Part shown: in pieces, positions 2,215 through 26,927 of the stretch
Numbering within the stretch: the first letter of the stretch is position 1
How the letters are laid out: every line of letters begins with the position of its first letter
From: a virus
Taxonomy: Duplodnaviria; Heunggongvirae; Uroviricota; Caudoviricetes
Strand: one strand, 5' to 3'
IMG/VR virus record: IMGVR_UViG_2531839432_000012
Length of the DNA stretch: 36,254 nt
Notes under the pieces: model-generated
Databases searched by the model: none
Seen by the model: the letters and a program-made list of their open reading frames with translations, nothing else
What the model was told of the DNA's origin: nothing
Made by a program: the position numbers and the translations under genes

Positions 2215-3192
2215 TTACATTCCTCCCAAGGGATTAAACCTCACCGCATCCTGCAAGTAATCCGGCGCAAGATGGGCATAAATCATCGTTGTCTGAATCT
2301 TTGCGTGCCCCAGAATTTTCTGGAGCGTCAGAATATTGCCGCCGTTCATCATGAAATGACTGGCGAATGTGTGGCGCAGCGCATGAACAGCCTGGCCGTC
2401 GGGAACATCAGGTGCGACCGTTTTGATGACATCGCGAACCAATGGATAATCCAGCGTCGGAAACACCAGTTTCCCGCCCCGTTTTTTGATCTTTTCAAAC
2501 AGGCTTTCAGAAATAGGAACGGTACGGTTTTTGCTGTTCTTCGTTTTTGAAAAAGTGATTCGACAATGAAGAACACGGCGCTGCTCCAGTGCCACTACCT
2601 CGCCCCATCGCGCCCCGGTCGACAGAAGGATTTCGACAGCCAGCCGTTCATCAGGATTTTCAGCCAGTGCATCCAGCAACTGAACACATTCAGACTTACT
2701 CAGATATCCCATTTCGCGCTCGTTAACCTTCATTCCTTTAAGGCCTTGAACGGGGTTATCGTTAAGAAAATGGCCGGATGAGATGAGTGCGGTAAACATC
2801 GCGCTTAACGCCCCAATCTCTCGATTAATAGTGCTGGGCTGTATCCCCTGCTCTATCCTGGACACACGTAGCTCGGTGAGCATCGTTGTATTAAGTTTAT
2901 GCACGCACGGGTCATCCATTGCCTCACTCAAGCGCAGCAATTTAAGGCGCGTGTTATGCCCTGACTTCATTAGCTGGCCGTGGTATTTCCACCACAAGTC
3001 AATAAGCACTGACAGCGGACGGCGATCAATGGAGTTTCCTTTCCACTCATTGTTATGCTGTTGCGCCAGCACCCACCGCTCATATAAAACTGCATCCGAT
3101 TTCGTTTTAAATTTTTTACGAATGCGTTTGCCTTTACGCCCCTCCGGGCGCATGTCAAGAAGATACCCTCCCGGAATTGATTTTATGCTCAT
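2215..3192 (-). CDS. int: P2-family tyrosine integrase (start taken at MSIKSIPGGY, not the longer ORF start at 3342)
   Basis: Translation has the phage-integrase C-terminal signature (HALRHTFASHFMMNGGNILTLQKILGHAKIQTTMIYAHL) and N-terminal arm-binding region; position next to the repressor as in P2. Confidence 0.85.
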   Translation of the reverse strand: MSIKSIPGGYLLDMRPEGRKGKRIRKKFKTKSDAVLYERWVLAQQHNNEWKGNSIDRRPLSVLIDLWWKYHGQLMKSGHNTRLKLLRLSEAMDDPCVHKLNTTMLTELRVSRIEQGIQPSTINREIGALSAMFTALISSGHFLNDNPVQGLKGMKVNEREMGYLSKSECVQLLDALAENPDERLAVEILLSTGARWGEVVALEQRRVLHCRITFSKTKNSKNRTVPISESLFEKIKKRGGKLVFPTLDYPLVRDVIKTVAPDVPDGQAVHALRHTFASHFMMNGGNILTLQKILGHAKIQTTMIYAHLAPDYLQDAVRFNPLGGM

Positions 3193-3241
3193 TCGTGAAA
3201 CCCCAGCGTTACAAGACCACCATGCCCCCAGCGCTCCATGA

Positions 3242-3553
3242 TTAGCCGGGCTGTGTGCCAGTCTTGCGGGGTTTTTGAGAAGGCGATGTGCTTTTTGGCC
3301 CATCAGGGGAGAGAGACGGACTGATCTGCCCAGCAGCCTCATTTGTTTCGTTACTCATCAACCACGTGGTGTATTTTTTAAAGTTCGGATGCATTGTGAT
3401 TTTCAGTAAAACCTCCGTCCCCACACCTCTAATACCAGTCTCATATTGCTTAACTGTACCAACCGCAATACCTATTGAATCCGCGAACTTTGCCTGGCTA
3501 AGTCCCTCAGATTCTCGAATTGCTTTTAGCTTCTTTGATATCTCTATTGACAT
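3242..3553 (-). CDS. Immunity repressor (P2 C-like), small HTH protein (start taken at MSIEISKKLKAIRESEGLSQ)
   Basis: HTH-like segment LSQAKFADSIGIAVGTVKQYETG; divergent from the early operon as in P2 int-C / cox. Confidence 0.7.
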   Translation of the reverse strand: MSIEISKKLKAIRESEGLSQAKFADSIGIAVGTVKQYETGIRGVGTEVLLKITMHPNFKKYTTWLMSNETNEAAGQISPSLSPDGPKSTSPSQKPRKTGTQPG

Positions 3554-3648
3554 GGTGTGCACCTGAATACTATATTGGTTATCAGTTGAGTACCACTTGA
3601 CGCCACAAAAAGCCACAAATAGCACCAGATTGAATAGGTTATCACATC
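3554..3648. promoter_or_regulatory. Divergent early control region (Pc/Pe-equivalent) with candidate operator direct repeats
   Basis: Seen in sequence: GCCACAAA at 3602..3609 and 3612..3619 (10-bp periodicity); GGTTATCA at 3577..3584 and 3637..3644; TTGACG -35-like hexamer at 3596..3601. Confidence 0.4.
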
Positions 3649-3927
3649 ATGGCAAAAGTCCTGAACACATACGAACAAGCGGATTTTGAGCGTTTGGCGG
3701 CGTTCTACCCATACCGTGATGAGCATGGGTTACCTGTGCTTGAAGAAAGCCTGGAAGATTACGCGAAACGCACGAATCAAAGCATTCTTGCGGTAAGAAG
3801 GCAGGCCGACAGATCAGTAATCCCCGTCACCCAAGAAGGAAGAAACACAAAACGCAAAGTAAACCTTTTCGCAATATTCCTGAAAACCATCAGGAGCGAA
3901 GAGAAATACGTGCAGATGACAAAATAA
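3649..3927 (+). CDS. First early-operon gene, Cox/Apl-like position (putative excisionase / early regulator)
   Basis: 92-aa ORF at the position of P2 cox; assignment by synteny only. Confidence 0.4.
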   Translation: MAKVLNTYEQADFERLAAFYPYRDEHGLPVLEESLEDYAKRTNQSILAVRRQADRSVIPVTQEGRNTKRKVNLFAIFLKTIRSEEKYVQMTK

Positions 3928-5677: not shown

Positions 5678-5940
5678 CCATTCTGGACTACATCGCTACC
5701 CATCCGGGTTGTAGCGGCGGAGAAATCGCCGCAGCACTGAATACTCCAACCACAGCCATTAATGCTGAGTTACGCCAACTTTGGCGCGGCGGCTTAGTCA
5801 TCAGAACAAACCGCAGCACAGGTGGTCGCGCTCGCAAAACTGGAGGCCAGGCTTCTTACCACGTAAACCCGATGCCGTTCGGGTGTAGCAATCCACTTAC
5901 TCACATGTTTAACCAGCTACTGAAGGAAGCCAGAGCATGA
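5674..5940 (+). CDS. Hypothetical protein (88 aa), possibly a small winged-helix DNA-binding protein
   Basis: Start overlaps the upstream stop (ATGA); HTH guess from the composition of the translation only. Confidence 0.45.
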   Translation: MTILDYIATHPGCSGGEIAAALNTPTTAINAELRQLWRGGLVIRTNRSTGGRARKTGGQASYHVNPMPFGCSNPLTHMFNQLLKEARA

Positions 5941-6236
5941 GCACCATCAACCACCAGAAGCTACGCGAACTGGCATTTACCCTGCAACGAATGGCAACGC
6001 CTCAAAAATTACTGGCATTTCGCGCAATGCTCTCGCCGTCTGCTGTGCTGGCACTGCTGGATGAGCTGGAGCACGCCAGAACCACGGCTCCTGCCATTCG
6101 CCTGACGCTCCATCATGAAATCGCTGATTTCTGCGCGACGTTGGAGGCGCCGGGCGAACCGGAAACGCCGGAAGCAATACAGCAAGAGCTGCTGCAACGC
6201 ATTGACAAGGTTTTTGATTTTTTTCTGAACCAGTAA
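5937..6236 (+). CDS. Hypothetical protein (99 aa)
   Basis: Start overlaps the upstream stop (ATGA); same operon. Confidence 0.5.
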   Translation: MSTINHQKLRELAFTLQRMATPQKLLAFRAMLSPSAVLALLDELEHARTTAPAIRLTLHHEIADFCATLEAPGEPETPEAIQQELLQRIDKVFDFFLNQ

Positions 6237-6558
6237 GAAACCAGAGCATGCACACACAAAAAAACCGCTTGCCACGCCGCAATCAGTCAGGTTACATTTC
6301 CGCTGCACCTCATAAAACGGGTGCCGGGATTTCCACCCCGCTGACTAGCAAAGCGCACAACCGCGCCAGCGGTTTTTTTGTGCGTACCGTATCGCCACGT
6401 CTTTTTCGCACACGAATTATGGTGGGGCGTATGGGGCCGACTTCGGTCGGGCCGGGTTCTTTGCTAGCCGGTTGTGGAAACCCTGTACGTCTCACCACCC
6501 CGAGTTTTCCACCTCTGGATGGTGAGTTTTTAAAACTTACTAGCAAAGAGGCCACACC
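6237..6558 (+). other. Structured non-coding region inside the early operon with three terminator-like hairpins and ACTAGCAAAG-type repeats; candidate attenuator or small RNA
   Basis: Seen in sequence: long-range inverted repeat AAAAAAACCGCTTG (about 6259..6272) / CAGCGGTTTTTTT (about 6367..6380); GC hairpin GGCCGAC-TTCG-GTCGGGCC near 6433..6452; hairpin CTCACCA...TGGTGAG followed by TTTTT near 6502..6535. Confidence 0.3.
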
Positions 6559-6789
6559 ATGGCAAACCGCAAACAACAGCGCGCATACGCTGCGCGTCGT
6601 CACATCCAGACTGAAATCAACCGTAGACTTTTCCGCGCATCACGCGTCGCGCAAATCATGCACATCAATATGCTGCATGAGCGCAGCCACGCGCTATCGA
6701 ACATCTATTCCGCCTCTGTTTTCAGCTATCTGGCGGATGATCTGCGCGAGCTGCAACAACTCTTCCAGCAGCAAAACAAACTCCATTAA
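6559..6789 (+). CDS. Hypothetical protein (76 aa)
   Basis: ORF with RBS (agaggccacaccATG). Confidence 0.45.
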   Translation: MANRKQQRAYAARRHIQTEINRRLFRASRVAQIMHINMLHERSHALSNIYSASVFSYLADDLRELQQLFQQQNKLH

Positions 6790-6861
6790 TTCCTGTTCCG
6801 GGCCTTTCCTGCACCTTGCGGCGGGAGGCCTTCGCACATCTGTAGTAAAGAGAATTGCAGC

Positions 6862-7251
6862 ATGATTGACGCTCATGACTTCACAAGATGGGTGCGCACA
6901 CAGGACACCCGTCTGGCTCCCGTTCTTCAGGGATTATTTGATCTCTACATCCGTGGTCGTGACAACAGAGCACGCACCACAAAACCGGAGAATGCAGACC
7001 CCCTTTATTTCACAGTAGACGACTGCTACCGCGTGGACTTCACACCACACGGGCTGGCGTTGCACTGCCTGACACCACACGGAGAATCACTGCTGGCGTA
7101 TTACGACTCCCCGGCCTCCGTATTTGCGGCAATGCTGGCGCATCGCACTGCTGGCGGGTGTGCCTCGCTGAGTGAATACACCGCTGAATTTAACCGCCTT
7201 TCTGCCCTCTTCTCGCAGGAGTGGCAGCGCGTGACGGGATACCAGCCATGA
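6862..7251 (+). CDS. Hypothetical early protein (129 aa) immediately upstream of the replication gene
   Basis: ORF; its stop overlaps the A start (ATGA). Confidence 0.5.
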   Translation: MIDAHDFTRWVRTQDTRLAPVLQGLFDLYIRGRDNRARTTKPENADPLYFTVDDCYRVDFTPHGLALHCLTPHGESLLAYYDSPASVFAAMLAHRTAGGCASLSEYTAEFNRLSALFSQEWQRVTGYQP

Positions 7252-10088
7252 GTGAGTTTGCATGGAGCTGGAATGAACCACGGCCAGCCATTGATCCGGC
7301 CAGATTTACGGAGCACAGGCAGGAAACTGAAACCGACCTGCAACGCGCCATCCGTTACTACCTTGAGGCAGACAAAAAGGCTCTGGAAGAACAGGAAGCG
7401 AAGGAGGAAGCCTTTTTCGCACAATCCACCGTGGGTAAAAAACTCATGGCATCCCTTGAGGAAGCCGGACAGCGTGAAAAGCTGGCACAAAGCATCATCA
7501 GCAAGCGTCAGGCAACAGAACAAGACCCGGTGGCCCGTGCTTTTGCCACACTGAAGGTGCTTCCCGTTTATCTGCGTGAACCTCTGAGCCGCCACCTCTC
7601 TTTCCTGCGCAAAAAACAGGAAGCCGATCGCCAGAAAGGCAAAAAGAGCTGGCAGGCTGAACGCTACGCGCGCGGAACCCTGCGCAAAATATTCCAACGT
7701 CTGGACCGCACCGATCACCGCTGGCTGACACCGGGTTATCGCTCCCTTGCCGGACGCGAACGCCTGGACGATTTGCTTTACCTACCGCAGCTCAACAAAC
7801 ACCAGATACAGACGCTGGCCACCATGACGGCGGCGATGTTCAGCAGCACCTTCGAAAAACTCTGCGATGGCTTTGGCGCGACTGATGGCGAACTGACCAT
7901 GGATGTAACGCTGAAGGCGTATCAGATGCTGGCCCGCATGGCGTTACACCTGCACGCCATGCCTCCACATTATGACGCACTGACAACAGACAAAAACCGG
8001 AGGAACGAACCGGACACGGAGCTGCTGCCGGGCGCAATCCTTCGCCTGACCTGTGCGGAATGGTGGAAACGCAAACTGTGGCTGTTACGTTGCGAGTGGA
8101 GAGAAGAACAACTCCGCGCCGCCTGTCTGGTTTCCAGAAAAACATCACCCTATCTGAGCCAGGACGCGTTAAGCGAGTTTCGCGCACAGCGCGACAAAAC
8201 ACGCGATTTCCTGAAAAGTTTCATGCTGGAAAATGAAGACGGGTTTACGATTGATCTCGAGACGGTGTATTACGCGGGAGTAAGTAACCCGGTTCACCGT
8301 AAGGCAGAAATGATGGCCACAATGAAGGGGCTGGAACTTCTGGCCGAAGCCCGTGGCGACAAAGCGGTGTTTCTGACTGTCACCTGCCCGTCAAAATACC
8401 ACGCCACAACAGAGAACGGTCATCCGAATCCCAAATGGAACGGGGCCACCATGCGCGACTCCAGCGATTACCTGGTTAACACGTTTTTTGCAGCGGTCCG
8501 CAAGAAACTGAACCGCGATGGCCTGCGCTGGTATGGCATCCGCACGGTGGAGCCTCACCATGACGGCACCGTGCACTGGCATATGATGGTCTTTGCTCAT
8601 CCGGAAGAAATCGACAGCATTGTGGCCATCACCCGCGATATTGCCATTCAGGAAGACCGCCACGAGCTGGGCGATGACATAACTCCGCGTTTTAAGGCGG
8701 AGTACGTAGACGGCTCAAAAGGCACACCAACCAGCTATATCGCGACCTACATCGGAAAAAACCTGGACAGCCGCGCCGTGGATGGCATCGACCCGAAAAC
8801 GGGCAAGCCACGCGTTGAGCACGAAACCGGAAAATCAATGGCAGAGAGCGTGGAACGCGCCATCGGCTGGGGGCGCCTTCACCGGGTCCGCCAGTTCCAG
8901 TTCTTTGGTATCCCCTCCCGTCAGGTGTGGCGTGAACTGCGTCGCCTTGCCAGCCAGATGGCACGCAACCCGGAAGGCCCGCAACGGCTGAAGGATGACG
9001 CAATGGACTCGGTTCTTGCTGCCGCTGATGCCGGATGTTTTGCCACCTACATAGAGAAACAGGGCGGCGTACTTGTTCCACGCAAAGACTACCTGATTCG
9101 CACCGCCTACGACCTCGCAGATGAGCTGAACGATTACGGCGAACAGAGCGTACAGATTTACGGGATCTGGTCACCACTCATCGGGGAATCCTCCCGTGTG
9201 TGCACGCACCCGGATAACTGGAAGCTGGTAAGACGTAAACCTGAAGCAGAAGACATCGCCCGCGAAAATGGTTTTGACCTTCAGGGCGGCCCTGCCGCCC
9301 CTTGGACTCGTGGCAATAACTGTCCCCGTGTACAGGAAACGGACAACAACGGGACAGAACAGCCGGAAGAACGGCCAGCACCGTGGCCGCAGCTCCCTGA
9401 CGGCGTTGAAGTGAACGTATGGATGCGCTCACTGAAACGGCACGAACGCCGGGCGCTGATGCGTTCGCTTCGTGACAAACAGGCAAAAAACAGCAGTGAT
9501 GAAATGCAGAGCTGGACACAGAGCCGCAAACAGCAGCGGCCTTTGCCTGATAACCACGAATTACTCGCTAAAGAATGGCGGGAATCTGCCGAATCTCTCG
9601 GCCTGCATATCGGTGAACAGCAGATGCAGCACCTGTTACGGGGCGGCAGCCTGTACGTTGACGGCAGCATCATTGCACCGCAGGGATTTGAAATTGTACG
9701 CAAACCGGATACCCGCCCGGACAGCCGAATCACGCAGTTCTGGCAGCGCCTGAGCCGTAATCACGGCGTAAGCAGCACGGAGATCCGCCATAACCCGGTC
9801 GCCAGCTATCTGGAACAGCTGGGGGCATCAGCCCCCGAAGCCGCCGCACGCCTGGCATCCACACTTCAGCAGGACCAGAACACCATGAAAACCCCCGTTA
9901 CCGTGCTTTCTGACATGCTGCGCGCCATCCGTGACGCAGAGCACGCACAGAGAATCAGTGAAACCACTGAACGCGCCCACCGCAAAGCAGACCTGCTGCG
10001 GGGTGGCTTGACCCGTGGGAACAAAAAACAGACAGAAACGGGATCCACGAATCCCGTAAATGACCAAAAAACGCGCAGCGATATATGA
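7248..10088 (+). CDS. A: Replication initiation protein (P2 gpA-like rolling-circle replication endonuclease), 946 aa; start taken at MSEFAWSW
   Basis: Very large early ORF at the position of P2 A after the early small genes; conserved-looking core (HxH-type segment VHWHMMVF, YIATYIGKN); identification by size, position and motifs, not a search. Confidence 0.75.
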   Translation: MSEFAWSWNEPRPAIDPARFTEHRQETETDLQRAIRYYLEADKKALEEQEAKEEAFFAQSTVGKKLMASLEEAGQREKLAQSIISKRQATEQDPVARAFATLKVLPVYLREPLSRHLSFLRKKQEADRQKGKKSWQAERYARGTLRKIFQRLDRTDHRWLTPGYRSLAGRERLDDLLYLPQLNKHQIQTLATMTAAMFSSTFEKLCDGFGATDGELTMDVTLKAYQMLARMALHLHAMPPHYDALTTDKNRRNEPDTELLPGAILRLTCAEWWKRKLWLLRCEWREEQLRAACLVSRKTSPYLSQDALSEFRAQRDKTRDFLKSFMLENEDGFTIDLETVYYAGVSNPVHRKAEMMATMKGLELLAEARGDKAVFLTVTCPSKYHATTENGHPNPKWNGATMRDSSDYLVNTFFAAVRKKLNRDGLRWYGIRTVEPHHDGTVHWHMMVFAHPEEIDSIVAITRDIAIQEDRHELGDDITPRFKAEYVDGSKGTPTSYIATYIGKNLDSRAVDGIDPKTGKPRVEHETGKSMAESVERAIGWGRLHRVRQFQFFGIPSRQVWRELRRLASQMARNPEGPQRLKDDAMDSVLAAADAGCFATYIEKQGGVLVPRKDYLIRTAYDLADELNDYGEQSVQIYGIWSPLIGESSRVCTHPDNWKLVRRKPEAEDIARENGFDLQGGPAAPWTRGNNCPRVQETDNNGTEQPEERPAPWPQLPDGVEVNVWMRSLKRHERRALMRSLRDKQAKNSSDEMQSWTQSRKQQRPLPDNHELLAKEWRESAESLGLHIGEQQMQHLLRGGSLYVDGSIIAPQGFEIVRKPDTRPDSRITQFWQRLSRNHGVSSTEIRHNPVASYLEQLGASAPEAAARLASTLQQDQNTMKTPVTVLSDMLRAIRDAEHAQRISETTERAHRKADLLRGGLTRGNKKQTETGSTNPVNDQKTRSDI

Positions 10089-24599: not shown

Positions 24600-25200
24600 T
24601 TCGTTGTTACCACCATCAGCCAGCAATTTCATGCGTTGTGCCGAAGCCGTCGGAACACGCATTACAGACATTCCGGTAGACCTCAACACGCTGTGGTCGC
24701 CGGACACCTGCCCGGTGCATCTGCTGCCTTATCTCGCCTGGGCGTTTTCCGTTGACCGCTGGGATCGCAACTGGCCGGAAGAGACAAAGCGACAGGTGAT
24801 TCGTGATGCATGGCTGATACACCGACACAAAGGGACCATCAGCGCACTGCGAAGAGCCGTGGAGCCTCTCGGCTACCTGATTGAAGTAAAGGAGTGGTGG
24901 CAACTCAACGAGGAGCCAGGAACATTTCGCATTGTTGTCGGAGTACTTGATCAGGGCATCACCGATGAAATGTATCAGGAACTTGAGCGCCTTATTGCGG
25001 ATGCAAAACCAGTAAGTCGCCATCTGACGGGGCTGACGATCAGCCTGAGTGTGAACGGAAAGATTTTCGTTGGTACGGGATGCTATCACGGCGATGCCCT
25101 GACGGTTTATCCCTACACCCCGGAGTCCATTATTGTCGAAGGGGATTATTTTCCTGCCCCGGCCATTCATTTAATTGATAATCTGAGAGTAAACGCATGA
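24592..25200 (+). CDS. I: Baseplate / tail formation protein I
   Basis: ORF in the P2 position (start at ATG 24592). Confidence 0.7.
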   Translation: MSNSLLPPSASNFMRCAEAVGTRITDIPVDLNTLWSPDTCPVHLLPYLAWAFSVDRWDRNWPEETKRQVIRDAWLIHRHKGTISALRRAVEPLGYLIEVKEWWQLNEEPGTFRIVVGVLDQGITDEMYQELERLIADAKPVSRHLTGLTISLSVNGKIFVGTGCYHGDALTVYPYTPESIIVEGDYFPAPAIHLIDNLRVNA

Positions 25201-26927
25201 CAGTGAAATACTACGCCATTCTGACTAATCAGGGCGCGGCACGACTGGCTAACGCGACGATGCTCGGCAGTAAGCTGAATCTGACGCAAATGGCCGTTGG
25301 TGATGCAAATGGTGTGTTACCAACACCAGACCCTGCACAAACAAAACTGATTAACCAGAAACGCATCGCGCCGCTGAATCTTCTGAGTGTTGACCCGAAC
25401 AACCAGAGCCAGATTATTGCGGAGCAAATCATCCCTGAGAACGAGGGCGGATTCTGGATCCGTGAGATAGGTCTTTATGATGATGAAGGCGTACTCATTG
25501 CGGTGGCGAACTGCCCGGAAACGTACAAACCACAGTTACAGGAAGGCAGTGGTCGTACCCAGACCATCCGTATGATTCTGGTCGTCTCGAATACCGAAGC
25601 CATCACGCTGAAAATCGACCCGTCAGTGGTGCTTGCGACGCGCCAGTATGTAGATCAGCAAATAGAAGTTCATGAGCAATCGCGCCGTCATCCATCTGCT
25701 TCTTTGACAGAAAAGGGATTTGTACGTCTGTATAGCGGTGTGGAAAGCAATGATGAAACAGTCGCTGCAACGCCAAAAGCAGTGAAAATAGCGATGGATA
25801 ATGCCAGCGCCAGACTGGCAAAAGACCGCAATGGTTCTGATATTCCCAATCCGGCACTGTTTGTTCAGAATCTGGGATTGAAAACGACTGTTGATAAAGC
25901 AGCATCAGCGATTCAGCCAGGAGATTATGGAATTGGTCTGGCTTATCTGAAAACCATGGGAACCAAATCGCAATTTTTTGCTTACAGTACAGCTGTCGGC
26001 TATCCAGAAGTGCCAACACATGGTGCTGGTTTCCAGGCCTGTTACAACGACAATCGGCGTGCACAAATTTATGTCGCTAATGATGGCAAGATGTACTGTC
26101 GATTCAGCATGTTATCGAAAATTGCCGATGATGAAACACCGTGGAATCAGGTGTTCACCAGTGCACATTATCCAGAAGCATCAGTGAGTGTTAAAGGAAT
26201 GGTGCAACTGGGGAGCGATGTAAACAGCGTGTCAGAAAATGTTGCGGCGACATTGAAAGCGGTAAAAATTGCGATGGACAACGCCAGCGCGAGACTAGCA
26301 AAGGACCGCAATGGTGCTGATATTCCTGACCCGACTTTGTTTATTCAGAATCTGGGACTTAAACCGACAGTTGATAAGGCTGAAAGTGCTCTGCAACAGG
26401 GAGCATACGGAATCGGTAGCAAAAATAACTACGAAATGGGTGAGGTTTCACAGTTTCTTGCATATTCAGGTAATGCAGATGAAGTGCCATCGAATGGGGC
26501 AGGTTTTCAGGCTGCGTATAACAAGAACAGACGCGCGCAGATTTTCATCACCGGAGCAGGAGAAATGTATCACCGTTTCAGCGGCTCTGATACGGTTAAA
26601 GACAATACAACACTATGGCGTCGGGGTGTTTGTGAAGATGAATTTTCATTTGGCAGCAATTATCACCGAATAACTGGCGGTGTGCTGAAGCAGTTTTTTA
26701 ACAGTTATTTTTCCGGGGCAACTGGTGTGGTGAATAAAGAGTATCAGGTGAATTTTCCGACACCATTTGCCCGTCAGTGCTGGTACGTAATCCCCGTTTT
26801 CCGTTCGTCACACGGTGGGAGTGTTGAGGGGGTCGCCATTACAGCTATTACTGCAACTGGCTTTACTCTGAGCATCACCGGAGATAACGGTGGATGGAAT
26901 ATTGGGTTTATTGCGGAGGGGGTCTGA
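25197..26927 (+). CDS. H: Tail fiber protein H with an internal duplicated module and a lower-GC C-terminal region
   Basis: Conserved P2 H-like N-terminus (MAVGDANG, FWIREIGLYDDEGVLIAVANCPE, HEQSRRHPSASLT); duplicated AATPKAVKIAMDNASARLAKDRNG...QNLGLK segment. Confidence 0.8.
   Translation: MTVKYYAILTNQGAARLANATMLGSKLNLTQMAVGDANGVLPTPDPAQTKLINQKRIAPLNLLSVDPNNQSQIIAEQIIPENEGGFWIREIGLYDDEGVLIAVANCPETYKPQLQEGSGRTQTIRMILVVSNTEAITLKIDPSVVLATRQYVDQQIEVHEQSRRHPSASLTEKGFVRLYSGVESNDETVAATPKAVKIAMDNASARLAKDRNGSDIPNPALFVQNLGLKTTVDKAASAIQPGDYGIGLAYLKTMGTKSQFFAYSTAVGYPEVPTHGAGFQACYNDNRRAQIYVANDGKMYCRFSMLSKIADDETPWNQVFTSAHYPEASVSVKGMVQLGSDVNSVSENVAATLKAVKIAMDNASARLAKDRNGADIPDPTLFIQNLGLKPTVDKAESALQQGAYGIGSKNNYEMGEVSQFLAYSGNADEVPSNGAGFQAAYNKNRRAQIFITGAGEMYHRFSGSDTVKDNTTLWRRGVCEDEFSFGSNYHRITGGVLKQFFNSYFSGATGVVNKEYQVNFPTPFARQCWYVIPVFRSSHGGSVEGVAITAITATGFTLSITGDNGGWNIGFIAEGV

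Follow-up and report, generated by a model that had tools for sequence, protein, structure and literature searches.

What kind of control element separates the small early genes of a P2-family prophage from the genes leading into its replication protein? The viral record IMGVR_UViG_2531839432_000012 (Caudoviricetes; 36,254 nucleotides [nt], referred to below in its full length as the window) is a complete P88-like prophage of the genus Xuanwuvirus. At positions 6237 to 6558, a sequence-only reading made without database searches had described a structured noncoding island and suggested an attenuator, an antitermination target, or a small RNA. The features listed in that reading are all real and far beyond chance, and the interpretation was right in kind, with small RNAs encoded and a terminator present. 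What it missed was more specific. The RNAs belong to two curated families, isrK/c4-a1b1 and C4, known in P4 as seqA and CI RNA; the repeated motif is a trans-acting antisense recognition code, with one copy inverted and placed in the regulator RNA's loop; the site directly targeted is the ribosome-binding site of the gene that follows, which encodes a 76-amino-acid (aa) homologue of P4 epsilon; and an overlapping 205-codon frame is the frame equivalent of P4 eta, kept free of stop codons in relatives. We consider it highly probable that the region is an RNA-based second immunity cassette of the type known from P1 immI, P4, N15, and Gifsy-1, located in the early operon of a P88-like prophage.

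Two RNA genes and their folds

Scanned at gathering thresholds, the entire window matched Rfam exactly twice, both times inside the region and on the plus strand, with E values of 5e-14 and 1e-11. The first, at 6305-6379, is an IsrK/c4-a1b1/seqA-type leader small RNA that spans positions 1 to 77 of the 77-position model RF01394 (63.8 bits; gathering threshold, 50). It consists of a first hairpin (6305-6324), a second hairpin (6325-6340), and an intrinsic terminator located by a terminator scan, with its stem at 6359-6374 and a run of seven U residues at 6373-6379. No match to the c4-a1b1 model itself (RF03163) was reported in the window. The second match, at 6415-6502, is a C4/CI-type antisense RNA that spans positions 1 to 87 of the 87-position model RF01695 (78.8 bits; gathering threshold, 45). 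A 17-bp closing stem (6420-6436 with 6481-6497) encloses a UUCG hairpin (6437-6450) and a second hairpin (6451-6455 with 6468-6472) that displays a 12-nt loop. The UUCG hairpin had already been recognized as a GC-rich hairpin with a TTCG loop, its stem being 6437-6441 with 6446-6450 and its loop 6442-6445. At a permissive threshold, the interval 5900-6900 yielded only chance-level matches to other Rfam families (E > 6). The cassette has the tested defining features of the C4 and isrK families and is a system of a kind already known; Rfam models find the isrK and C4 pair in the same order in P88, mEp460, P4, and N15.

The 88-nt C4 segment folds alone with a minimum free energy of -44.1 kcal/mol (z = -3.4), and the minimum-free-energy fold is the Rfam consensus. 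The expectation that covariance among relatives would bear out the paired regions held for the C4 helices. All three were 100% paired in an alignment of 24 diverse sequences, with 7, 3, and 0 compensatory pairs (10 in total). In the same alignment, the isrK hairpins were 85 to 87% paired and the isrK terminator was 97% paired, with scarce compensatory change. Support of this kind was not obtained for the two other structures of the region, a long inverted repeat and a hairpin downstream of C4.

The inverted repeat, reported earlier as long range and ending in a T7 run, has arms at 6252-6272 and 6365-6385 (plus strand) that are complementary at 19/21 positions, and the T7 run is 6373-6379. The best value in 100 dinucleotide-preserving shuffles of the region was 16/21, and the fold of 6245-6390 has an energy of -53.4 kcal/mol (z = -4.2). 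The second half of the isrK terminator, with its U-run, makes up the 3' arm. The 5' arm lies upstream of the predicted transcription start described below, and therefore only transcripts from the early promoter carry it. The repeat is invariant in P88-like loci and is kept there with three different upstream genes; it is absent at the same position in mEp460 and P4. We therefore rejected it as a conserved feature of the family, as it is confined to P88-like loci.

The downstream hairpin, here called the a2 hairpin, was correctly reported as a third hairpin followed by T5. It occupies 6491-6531 (plus strand) with its stem at 6491-6497 and 6520-6526 and its T5 run at 6527-6531 (-16.5 kcal/mol, z = -3.6). 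Its 5' strand is the 3' strand of the C4 closing stem, and the two structures therefore exclude each other. The outer stem is 96% paired in the 24 sequences, with changes that are one-sided only. As a conserved intrinsic terminator, the hairpin at 6491-6526 with its T5 run was rejected, because the T-run is not conserved in mEp460 or P4 and compensatory changes are absent.

Upstream of the isrK gene lies a predicted sigma-70 promoter at 6269-6298 (plus strand), with a -35 hexamer TTGCCA (6269-6274), an 18-nt spacer, and a -10 hexamer TACATT (6293-6298). A consensus scan gave 9 of 12 consensus positions and a predicted transcription start near 6305. The hexamers align with those of P4 P_LE (TTGCCT-18-TATAGT) and with the annotated P1 promoter P1c4/P51b, and the -10 hexamer ends 7 nt before isrK model position 1 in the window, P4, and P1 alike. 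Diversity across 6260-6300 is about 0 to 0.04 among 33 P88-like loci, which makes this stretch nearly invariant. By analogy with P4 and P1, the site may be active as a promoter; in Gifsy-1, the promoter immediately upstream of the isrK gene is PisrK. On the opposite strand, a 97-aa open reading frame (ORF) at 6310-6603, which is partly annotated in P88, was rejected as a candidate, as it had no PHROG match and the minus strand had no RNA-family match.

A recognition code of paired sites

Three copies of a ACTAGCAAAG-like motif had been noted before. Three sites are present in the region, as two direct copies and one inverted copy rather than three direct ones: CTAGCAAAG occurs exactly at 6345-6353 (+), 6540-6548 (+), and 6459-6467 (-). 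The whole window contains four exact matches to it, compared with 0.16 expected. The first direct copy, b1, is single stranded and precedes the isrK terminator, and the second, b2, overlaps the Shine-Dalgarno sequence of the 76-aa ORF downstream. The inverted copy, which reads CTTTGCTAG on the plus strand and is termed b', is the reverse complement of b1 and lies in the 12-nt loop of the second C4 hairpin. A second set of plus-strand sites accompanies the first: a1 (GGATTTCCAC, 6327-6336) in the loop of the second isrK hairpin, a' (GTGGAAACCC, 6474-6483) in the C4 junction, and a2 (AGTTTTCCAC, 6503-6512) in the loop of the hairpin at 6491-6526. Both b1 and b2 match b' at 9/9 positions, and the a sites match at 8 to 9 of 10. 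The targets carry a followed by b and C4 carries b' followed by a', an order that is colinear for antiparallel pairing.

The sites differ among phages while their complementarity is kept. This was evident in a three-way alignment of the window, P88, and mEp460, where b1, b', and b2 read CAACTACAG, CTGTAGTTG, and CAACTACAG in P88 and TCACCAAAG, CTTTGGTGA, and TCACCAAAG in mEp460, and where the a site of mEp460 is inverted (complemented) relative to that of the window. We extended the comparison to 120 viral contigs sharing the invariant C4 core, which represent 87 unique loci and fall into 16 b'/a' classes. With at most one mismatch, a locus's own b' matched both flanks in 71 of the 87 loci, compared with none of 783 tests using a foreign b'. 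The own a' matched its flanks in 86/87 loci and a foreign a' in 11/609 tests. In the 24-sequence alignment, 97% of b1:b' positions and 90% of a1:a' positions were paired, with two-sided changes in 8 of 9 b pairs and changes in 6 of 10 a pairs. The covariation of the upstream sites a1 and b1 with a' and b' was 0.56, compared with 0.16 in shuffles and no more than 0.15 with slid partners; that of b':b2 and a':a2 was 0.53, compared with 0.16 in shuffles, and slid partners did not exceed 0.24 over both tests. Predicted energies of cognate duplexes ranged from -28 to -37 kcal/mol, and in two 8 by 8 matrices the cognate duplex was the most stable in every row. The combination of b' and a' found in the window is unique in this sample.

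The same sites permit a reading in which the region is a purely cis-acting attenuator, with alternative structures setting the read-through into the replication genes and no diffusible RNA. The minimum-free-energy fold of the read-through RNA (6305-6580) contains a cis helix of a1b1 with a'b' together with the hairpin at 6491-6526 and its U5 run, a fold similar to the "structure A" described for Gifsy-1. Also in favor of this reading, the long inverted repeat is real, and in Gifsy-1, cis alternative structures control translation (PMC4825925). However, the covariation of a2 and b2 with a' and b' equals that of a1 and b1 in strength, and simultaneous pairing of both target pairs in cis is impossible. 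The C4 scaffold is stable and folds independently, and its counterpart in P4 is released by processing (PMC3632133, PMC10111431). The P1 record annotates c4 RNA and its four target sites as antisense binding sites, Gifsy-1 IsrK acts in trans (PMC4825925), and the specificity classes reassort between loci as expected of diffusible immunity determinants. Given this evidence, we regard control exclusively in cis as improbable and favor an antisense RNA that acts on separate transcripts.

Several relatives show how the sites are distributed. A Salmonella enterica locus (CP191473.1, about 2740-3003) encodes an epsilon-like protein 99% identical to that of the window and has the same a site, but its b sites differ (CTACAAGAG and CTCTTGTAG). 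An Escherichia albertii locus combines the P88 b type with another a type (TTGCAAC). Both loci add new specificity classes, and from their combinations it follows that the sites are replaced locally and independently of the flanking genes. In one P88-like locus (L012, 5188-5452), a1 (ATTCTCAC) is mismatched to the locus's own a' (GTGGAAAC) and a2 (TTTTCCAC), which suggests recombination inside the cassette, between the leader and C4.

Other contigs carry two or three isrK-C4-Rha-type cassettes of different specificity in tandem, about 850 nt apart (L116, 3024-4996; L034, about 7045-7938; and L105). In the third cassette of L116, b2 (TCACCAAAG) does not fit its own b' (CTATGTTGA), and this target looks orphaned or recombinant. 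In the window, the fourth copy of CTAGCAAAG lies at 26295-26303 (+), inside a 576-codon ORF (25197-26927) of unidentified function, with no a-type site adjoining it. This copy is probably due to chance, although it could be an extra C4 target.

The putatively gated gene and the overlapping open frame

The first ORF downstream of the cassette, ORF76 (6559-6789, plus strand), encodes a homologue of the P4 epsilon derepression protein. It matches Pfam PF25738 (Derepression) with 31.5 bits (gathering threshold, 27), and P4 epsilon itself scores 170 bits on this model; the two proteins are 33% identical (BLASTP E = 4e-9). Nucleotide diversity in ORF76 is 0.165 at codon position 3, compared with 0.093 and 0.098 at positions 1 and 2. 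Its Shine-Dalgarno sequence, AAGAGG at 6546-6551 (plus strand), is overlapped by b2, which ends 10 nt before the ATG at 6559, and the spacing between b2 and icd in the annotated P1 record is identical. Almost every related locus examined has b2 at a fixed offset, directly against the Shine-Dalgarno sequence of the ORF that comes first downstream. The related cassettes form two groups according to that ORF: P88-like cassettes gate an epsilon-type ORF, and lambdoid cassettes gate a Rha-type anti-repressor of about 181 to 187 aa. ORF76 had no similarity to P1 Icd or N15 gp31, a comparison with solved structures returned nothing meaningful, and no Ant-type domain was found in ORF76 or in the next gene, ORF129. 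By analogy with P4, the ORF76 protein would be an anti-repressor aimed at the P2 C-type repressor of this prophage.

A second frame, ORF205 (6248-6865, plus strand), spans the promoter, both RNA genes, and, in another frame, ORF76, and it ends with an ATGA overlap on the start of ORF129 at 6862. The sequence-only reading had found no credible ORF here and had described the composition of this frame as unlike that of a protein. That judgment stands in one respect, as substitution in 6248-6865 is not protein-like: the RNA part has no codon periodicity and no third-position excess of variation. It does not stand in another, since the frame is conserved in an open state in relatives. Of 71 unique relatives, 69 have it uninterrupted throughout the RNA genes, and stop codons occur in it at three singleton positions, compared with 20 and 22 positions in the other plus-strand frames and 14 to 23 in the reverse frames. 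When frames are counted from the C4 core, P4 eta/orf199 (P4 ORF 8168-8767/8812) uses the same one. In three different upstream contexts, the cassette has its left edge at the ATG of ORF205. The long ORF of Rha-type loci shares its frame with the anti-repressor, as eta does with kil in P4, whereas ORF76 is out of frame with ORF205.

Pfam PF10554 (Ash) gives ORF205 a score of 25.5 bits, just under its gathering threshold of 26, and gives P4 eta 82 bits and the long Rha protein of mEp460 57 bits. The matches of this model to P4 eta/orf199 (8168-8767, minus strand), to the N-terminal extension of mEp460 "Rha" (2641-3792), and to N15 gene 32 (1517-1807) fall exactly at the positions of the RNAs.

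These matches bear on the possibility that the locus is mainly a protein-coding "Ash family" gene and that the RNA-family matches are by-products of a conserved coding sequence. The ORF at 6248-6865 is open, its frame is depleted of stop codons, and it is an annotated coding sequence in PhiR44_2, vB_EcoM-569R5, and P884B11. RefSeq uses the label "ash family protein," the PF10554 score approaches its threshold, and several PHROG "transcriptional regulator" families match residues 4 to 118. However, a third-codon-position excess is found nowhere in the RNA part, and the variation clusters in six short sites whose changes come in complementary sets, a pattern that RNA pairing alone can explain. 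Stems show compensatory changes, and from 6559 onward it is the ORF76 frame that has a coding signal and homology to P4 epsilon. RefSeq itself calls Ash a partial pseudogene, the P1 record annotates c4 as an RNA feature, and the RNAs have been established experimentally in Gifsy-1 (PMC4825925) and, according to summaries, in P4 (PMC3632133, PMC10111431). We consequently give very little credence to an origin of these signals in a conserved protein. The ORF205 frame may be translated as a leader, not as a conserved protein.

With the RNA genes recognized, PF10554 appears to be a conceptual translation of isrK-C4 RNA genes, which would account for the "Ash domain," described in a 2022 study of Stx phages as having no known function (PMC8951638). 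A survey of P4-like satellites took PF10554 as the marker of epsilon (PMC8628076). The RNA reading bears on that choice: here PF10554 matches the ORF over the RNA genes, while P4 epsilon matches PF25738.

Proposed regulation, relatives, and setting

How these elements might work together can be outlined from their arrangement here, that is, from the family membership, folds, complementarity, three-way covariation, position of b2 on the ribosome-binding site, epsilon homology, and conserved open frame described above. For promoter activity, processing, repression in vivo, polarity, the protein target, the IsrK decoy, and the translational bypass, the scheme draws on P1, P4, and Gifsy-1. The internal promoter at 6269-6298 would be constitutive and would give an untranslated transcript starting at about 6305. 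The majority of transcripts would end at the terminator at 6359-6379, releasing an IsrK-like RNA of about 75 nt with a1 and b1, and read-through transcripts would be processed, presumably by RNase P, to a C4/CI-like RNA of 80 to 90 nt (6415-6502). On read-through transcripts, b' in the C4 loop and a' in the C4 junction would pair with b2 (6540-6548) and a2 (6503-6512). Pairing with b2 would block the translation of ORF76 because b2 overlaps its Shine-Dalgarno sequence, and polarity would also limit the expression of ORF129 and gpA from the internal promoter. The epsilon-like anti-repressor is predicted to act on the P2 C-type repressor, so that the RNA would be a second lock on lysogeny. The target sites are also present on the IsrK-like RNA, which could compete for C4 as a decoy. 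Transcripts from the early promoter include the ATG at 6248 and may be translated through the RNA region in the manner of P4 eta, thereby bypassing RNA control in lytic growth. According to a published summary, RNA-dependent termination in P4 is prevented when eta, expressed from an upstream promoter, is translated (PMC10111431). The statements on the P4 mechanism used here draw on secondary summaries (PMC10111431, PMC3632133, PMC4825925). IsrK and C4 have been equated with seqA and CI in the literature (PMC3632133, PMC4825925), and in Gifsy-1, IsrK activates downstream genes in trans (PMC4825925); binding of the short RNA to Hfq is likewise known from the Gifsy-1 experiments.

A number of observations weigh against this scheme. 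The predicted promoter matches only 9 of 12 consensus positions, and the five such sites in a 5-kb stretch are about the number found in shuffles. ORF205 is without protein-like constraint, and its translation is suggested by stop-codon depletion and the analogy with P4. Intrinsic termination at the a2 hairpin is doubtful, given the lack of compensatory changes and a T-run that is not conserved outside the group. The C repressor is proposed as the target of the epsilon-like protein by analogy with P4 only. For Gifsy-1, the described mechanism emphasizes alternative structures in cis and IsrK as an activator rather than a processed C4-like RNA as a repressor (PMC4825925), and the balance of such roles may differ here. 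No LexA box ties the cassette to the SOS response: none was found near it, and CTGT-N8-ACAG matches numbered 12, compared with 11.7 expected by chance. Finally, a literature search returned no expression data for this prophage or any P88-like phage.

A further possibility is that the cassette is an inactive relic in this prophage, recognizable by homology but without function. Some relatives do have mismatched sites, namely a1 against a' in L012 and b2 against b' in the third cassette of L116, and two loci have stop codons in the eta-like frame. In the window, however, the six recognition sites are intact, with b matching at 9/9 and a at 8 to 9 of 10 positions, and both RNAs score at the level of their families. 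The promoter hexamers, the terminator, the Shine-Dalgarno sequence, and both ORFs are intact as well. Decay of the cassette therefore seems to us very unlikely, and a working RNA immunity cassette remains the preferred interpretation.

P4 offers a close comparison for the open frame and the downstream gene. Both Rfam models match P4 in the same order (isrK at 8615-8692 and C4 at 8420-8507), falling on the P_LE leader (seqA) and the CI RNA, and the layout of the window parallels the seqA-CI-seqC series of P4 immunity. The promoter hexamers align, the same frame (eta/orf199) is open over both RNAs, and an epsilon homologue follows, with a replication gene further on. In P4, however, the gene gated first is kil, which lies within eta in the same frame, and epsilon begins about 245 nt after CI. 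In the window, b2 falls on the Shine-Dalgarno sequence of the epsilon-like ORF itself, which lies 57 nt after C4 in a different frame from the eta-like ORF. No kil-like first ORF in frame with eta was encountered there; ORF76 belongs to the epsilon family. The isrK and C4 genes are 35 nt apart in the window and about 108 nt apart in P4. P4 is a satellite with an alpha primase, whereas the window is a complete phage of P2 type that has a gpA initiator and in which the satellite genes of P4 (alpha primase, sid, psu, and delta) were not found.

P1 immI has the same order of promoter, a1, b1, C4, a2, b2, and first ORF (icd in P1), and in P1 and P7 an antisense RNA likewise gates an anti-repressor as a second layer of immunity. 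P1 passes the gathering thresholds for C4 (68.8 bits) and c4-a1b1 (RF03163, 51 bits) and stays below that for isrK (35.1 bits; threshold, 50). The gated genes are unrelated, the window having neither icd nor an Ant homologue, and the C1-controlled second promoter of P1 has no counterpart that was found in the window. N15 carries isrK (62.4 bits) and C4 (78.8 bits) in the same order upstream of its anti-repressor operon (genes 32/31/30), with c4-a1b1 at 42.4 bits, below the gathering threshold of 46.7. N15 gene 32 overlaps the C4 RNA and matches Pfam Ash. N15 differs from the window in its other downstream genes and in being a linear plasmid-prophage.

In Gifsy-1, the layout of a terminated short RNA and a read-through long RNA with an anti-repressor-type gene downstream is similar (PMC4825925); the genes of its isrK locus are IsrK, orf45/STnc1160, and anrP. 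The isrK-then-C4 pair of mEp460 and Stx phages is about 72 to 73% identical to that of the window at the nucleotide level. In contrast to the 76-aa, out-of-frame product of the window, Gifsy-1, mEp460, and Stx phages encode an anti-repressor of about 180 aa (Rha type in mEp460 and Stx phages) in frame with the long ORF.

Relatives of the 334-nt region (6237-6570) detectable by megablast are present in 1,151 of 5,426 complete Escherichia coli genomes, in up to four places per genome, and the best identity among these genomes was 96.4%, which makes an origin of the window in any of them improbable. Public labels for the stretch are "ash family protein" (partial pseudogene), "hypothetical protein," or part of a "Rha" gene. 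The cassette is thus common and misannotated. In the literature searched, no paper describing these RNAs in P88-like phages was found, and the papers on P88 and phiSM do not mention them. The principle known from P1, P4, N15, and Gifsy-1 is unchanged, and what differs, modestly, is the direct gating of an epsilon-type anti-repressor in a phage of the helper type. P88-like phages are predicted to have a second, RNA-based immunity with many specificities that are readable from sequence.

We further offer a tentative synthesis, which as a whole is somewhat less likely than not to be right. P88-like phages, the kind exploited by P4-type satellites, would share with P4 a cassette of RNA immunity and epsilon in which an antisense RNA gates an anti-repressor of the phage's own C repressor. 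The cassette would be mobile, with its left edge at the ATG of ORF205. Its a and b sites would form a combinatorial code of at least 18 specificities, reassorting even between phages with 99% identical epsilon proteins. The "Ash domain" would be the mere translation of RNA genes whose frame is kept open for lytic escape from RNA control. If this synthesis is true, P88-like phages would have two-lock immunity, which may explain the recovery of P88 after mitomycin C treatment.

The closest phage records to the region are P88-like Peduoviridae (Xuanwuvirus), which are complete phages with 90 to 93% identity there, and P88 has the same layout of integrase, C, early operon, and gpA as the window. 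The integrase is encoded at 2215-3342 (minus strand). The P2 C-type immunity repressor at 3242-3553/3625 (minus strand) has a Pfam HTH_3 domain and is 39.6% identical to P2 gpC over 98% of its length (E = 1e-15). A strong early promoter-like site lies at 3547-3576, next to a 92-aa ORF in the position of Cox (3649-3927; PHROG 11533). This ORF had no Pfam match, though it occupies the same place as the annotated Cox-type protein of P88. No tRNA or tmRNA gene was found in the window.

Downstream of ORF76, ORF129 (6862-7251, plus strand; PHROG 3237, function unknown) had no similarity to P4 orf151. NCBIfam gave zero matches for ORF76, ORF129, ORF99, and the Cox-position ORF. The early operon ends with a gpA-type replication initiator (7221-10088, plus strand; Pfam Phage_GPA, 437 bits). 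ORF205, ORF129, and gpA form a chain of overlapping starts and stops, in which ORF205 meets ORF129 at the ATGA of 6862-6865 and ORF129 overlaps the start of gpA. The best phage-record match of the C repressor is only 63% identical, and the protein immunity region of the window may be of a type other than that of P88, the RNA cassette being nonetheless common to both.

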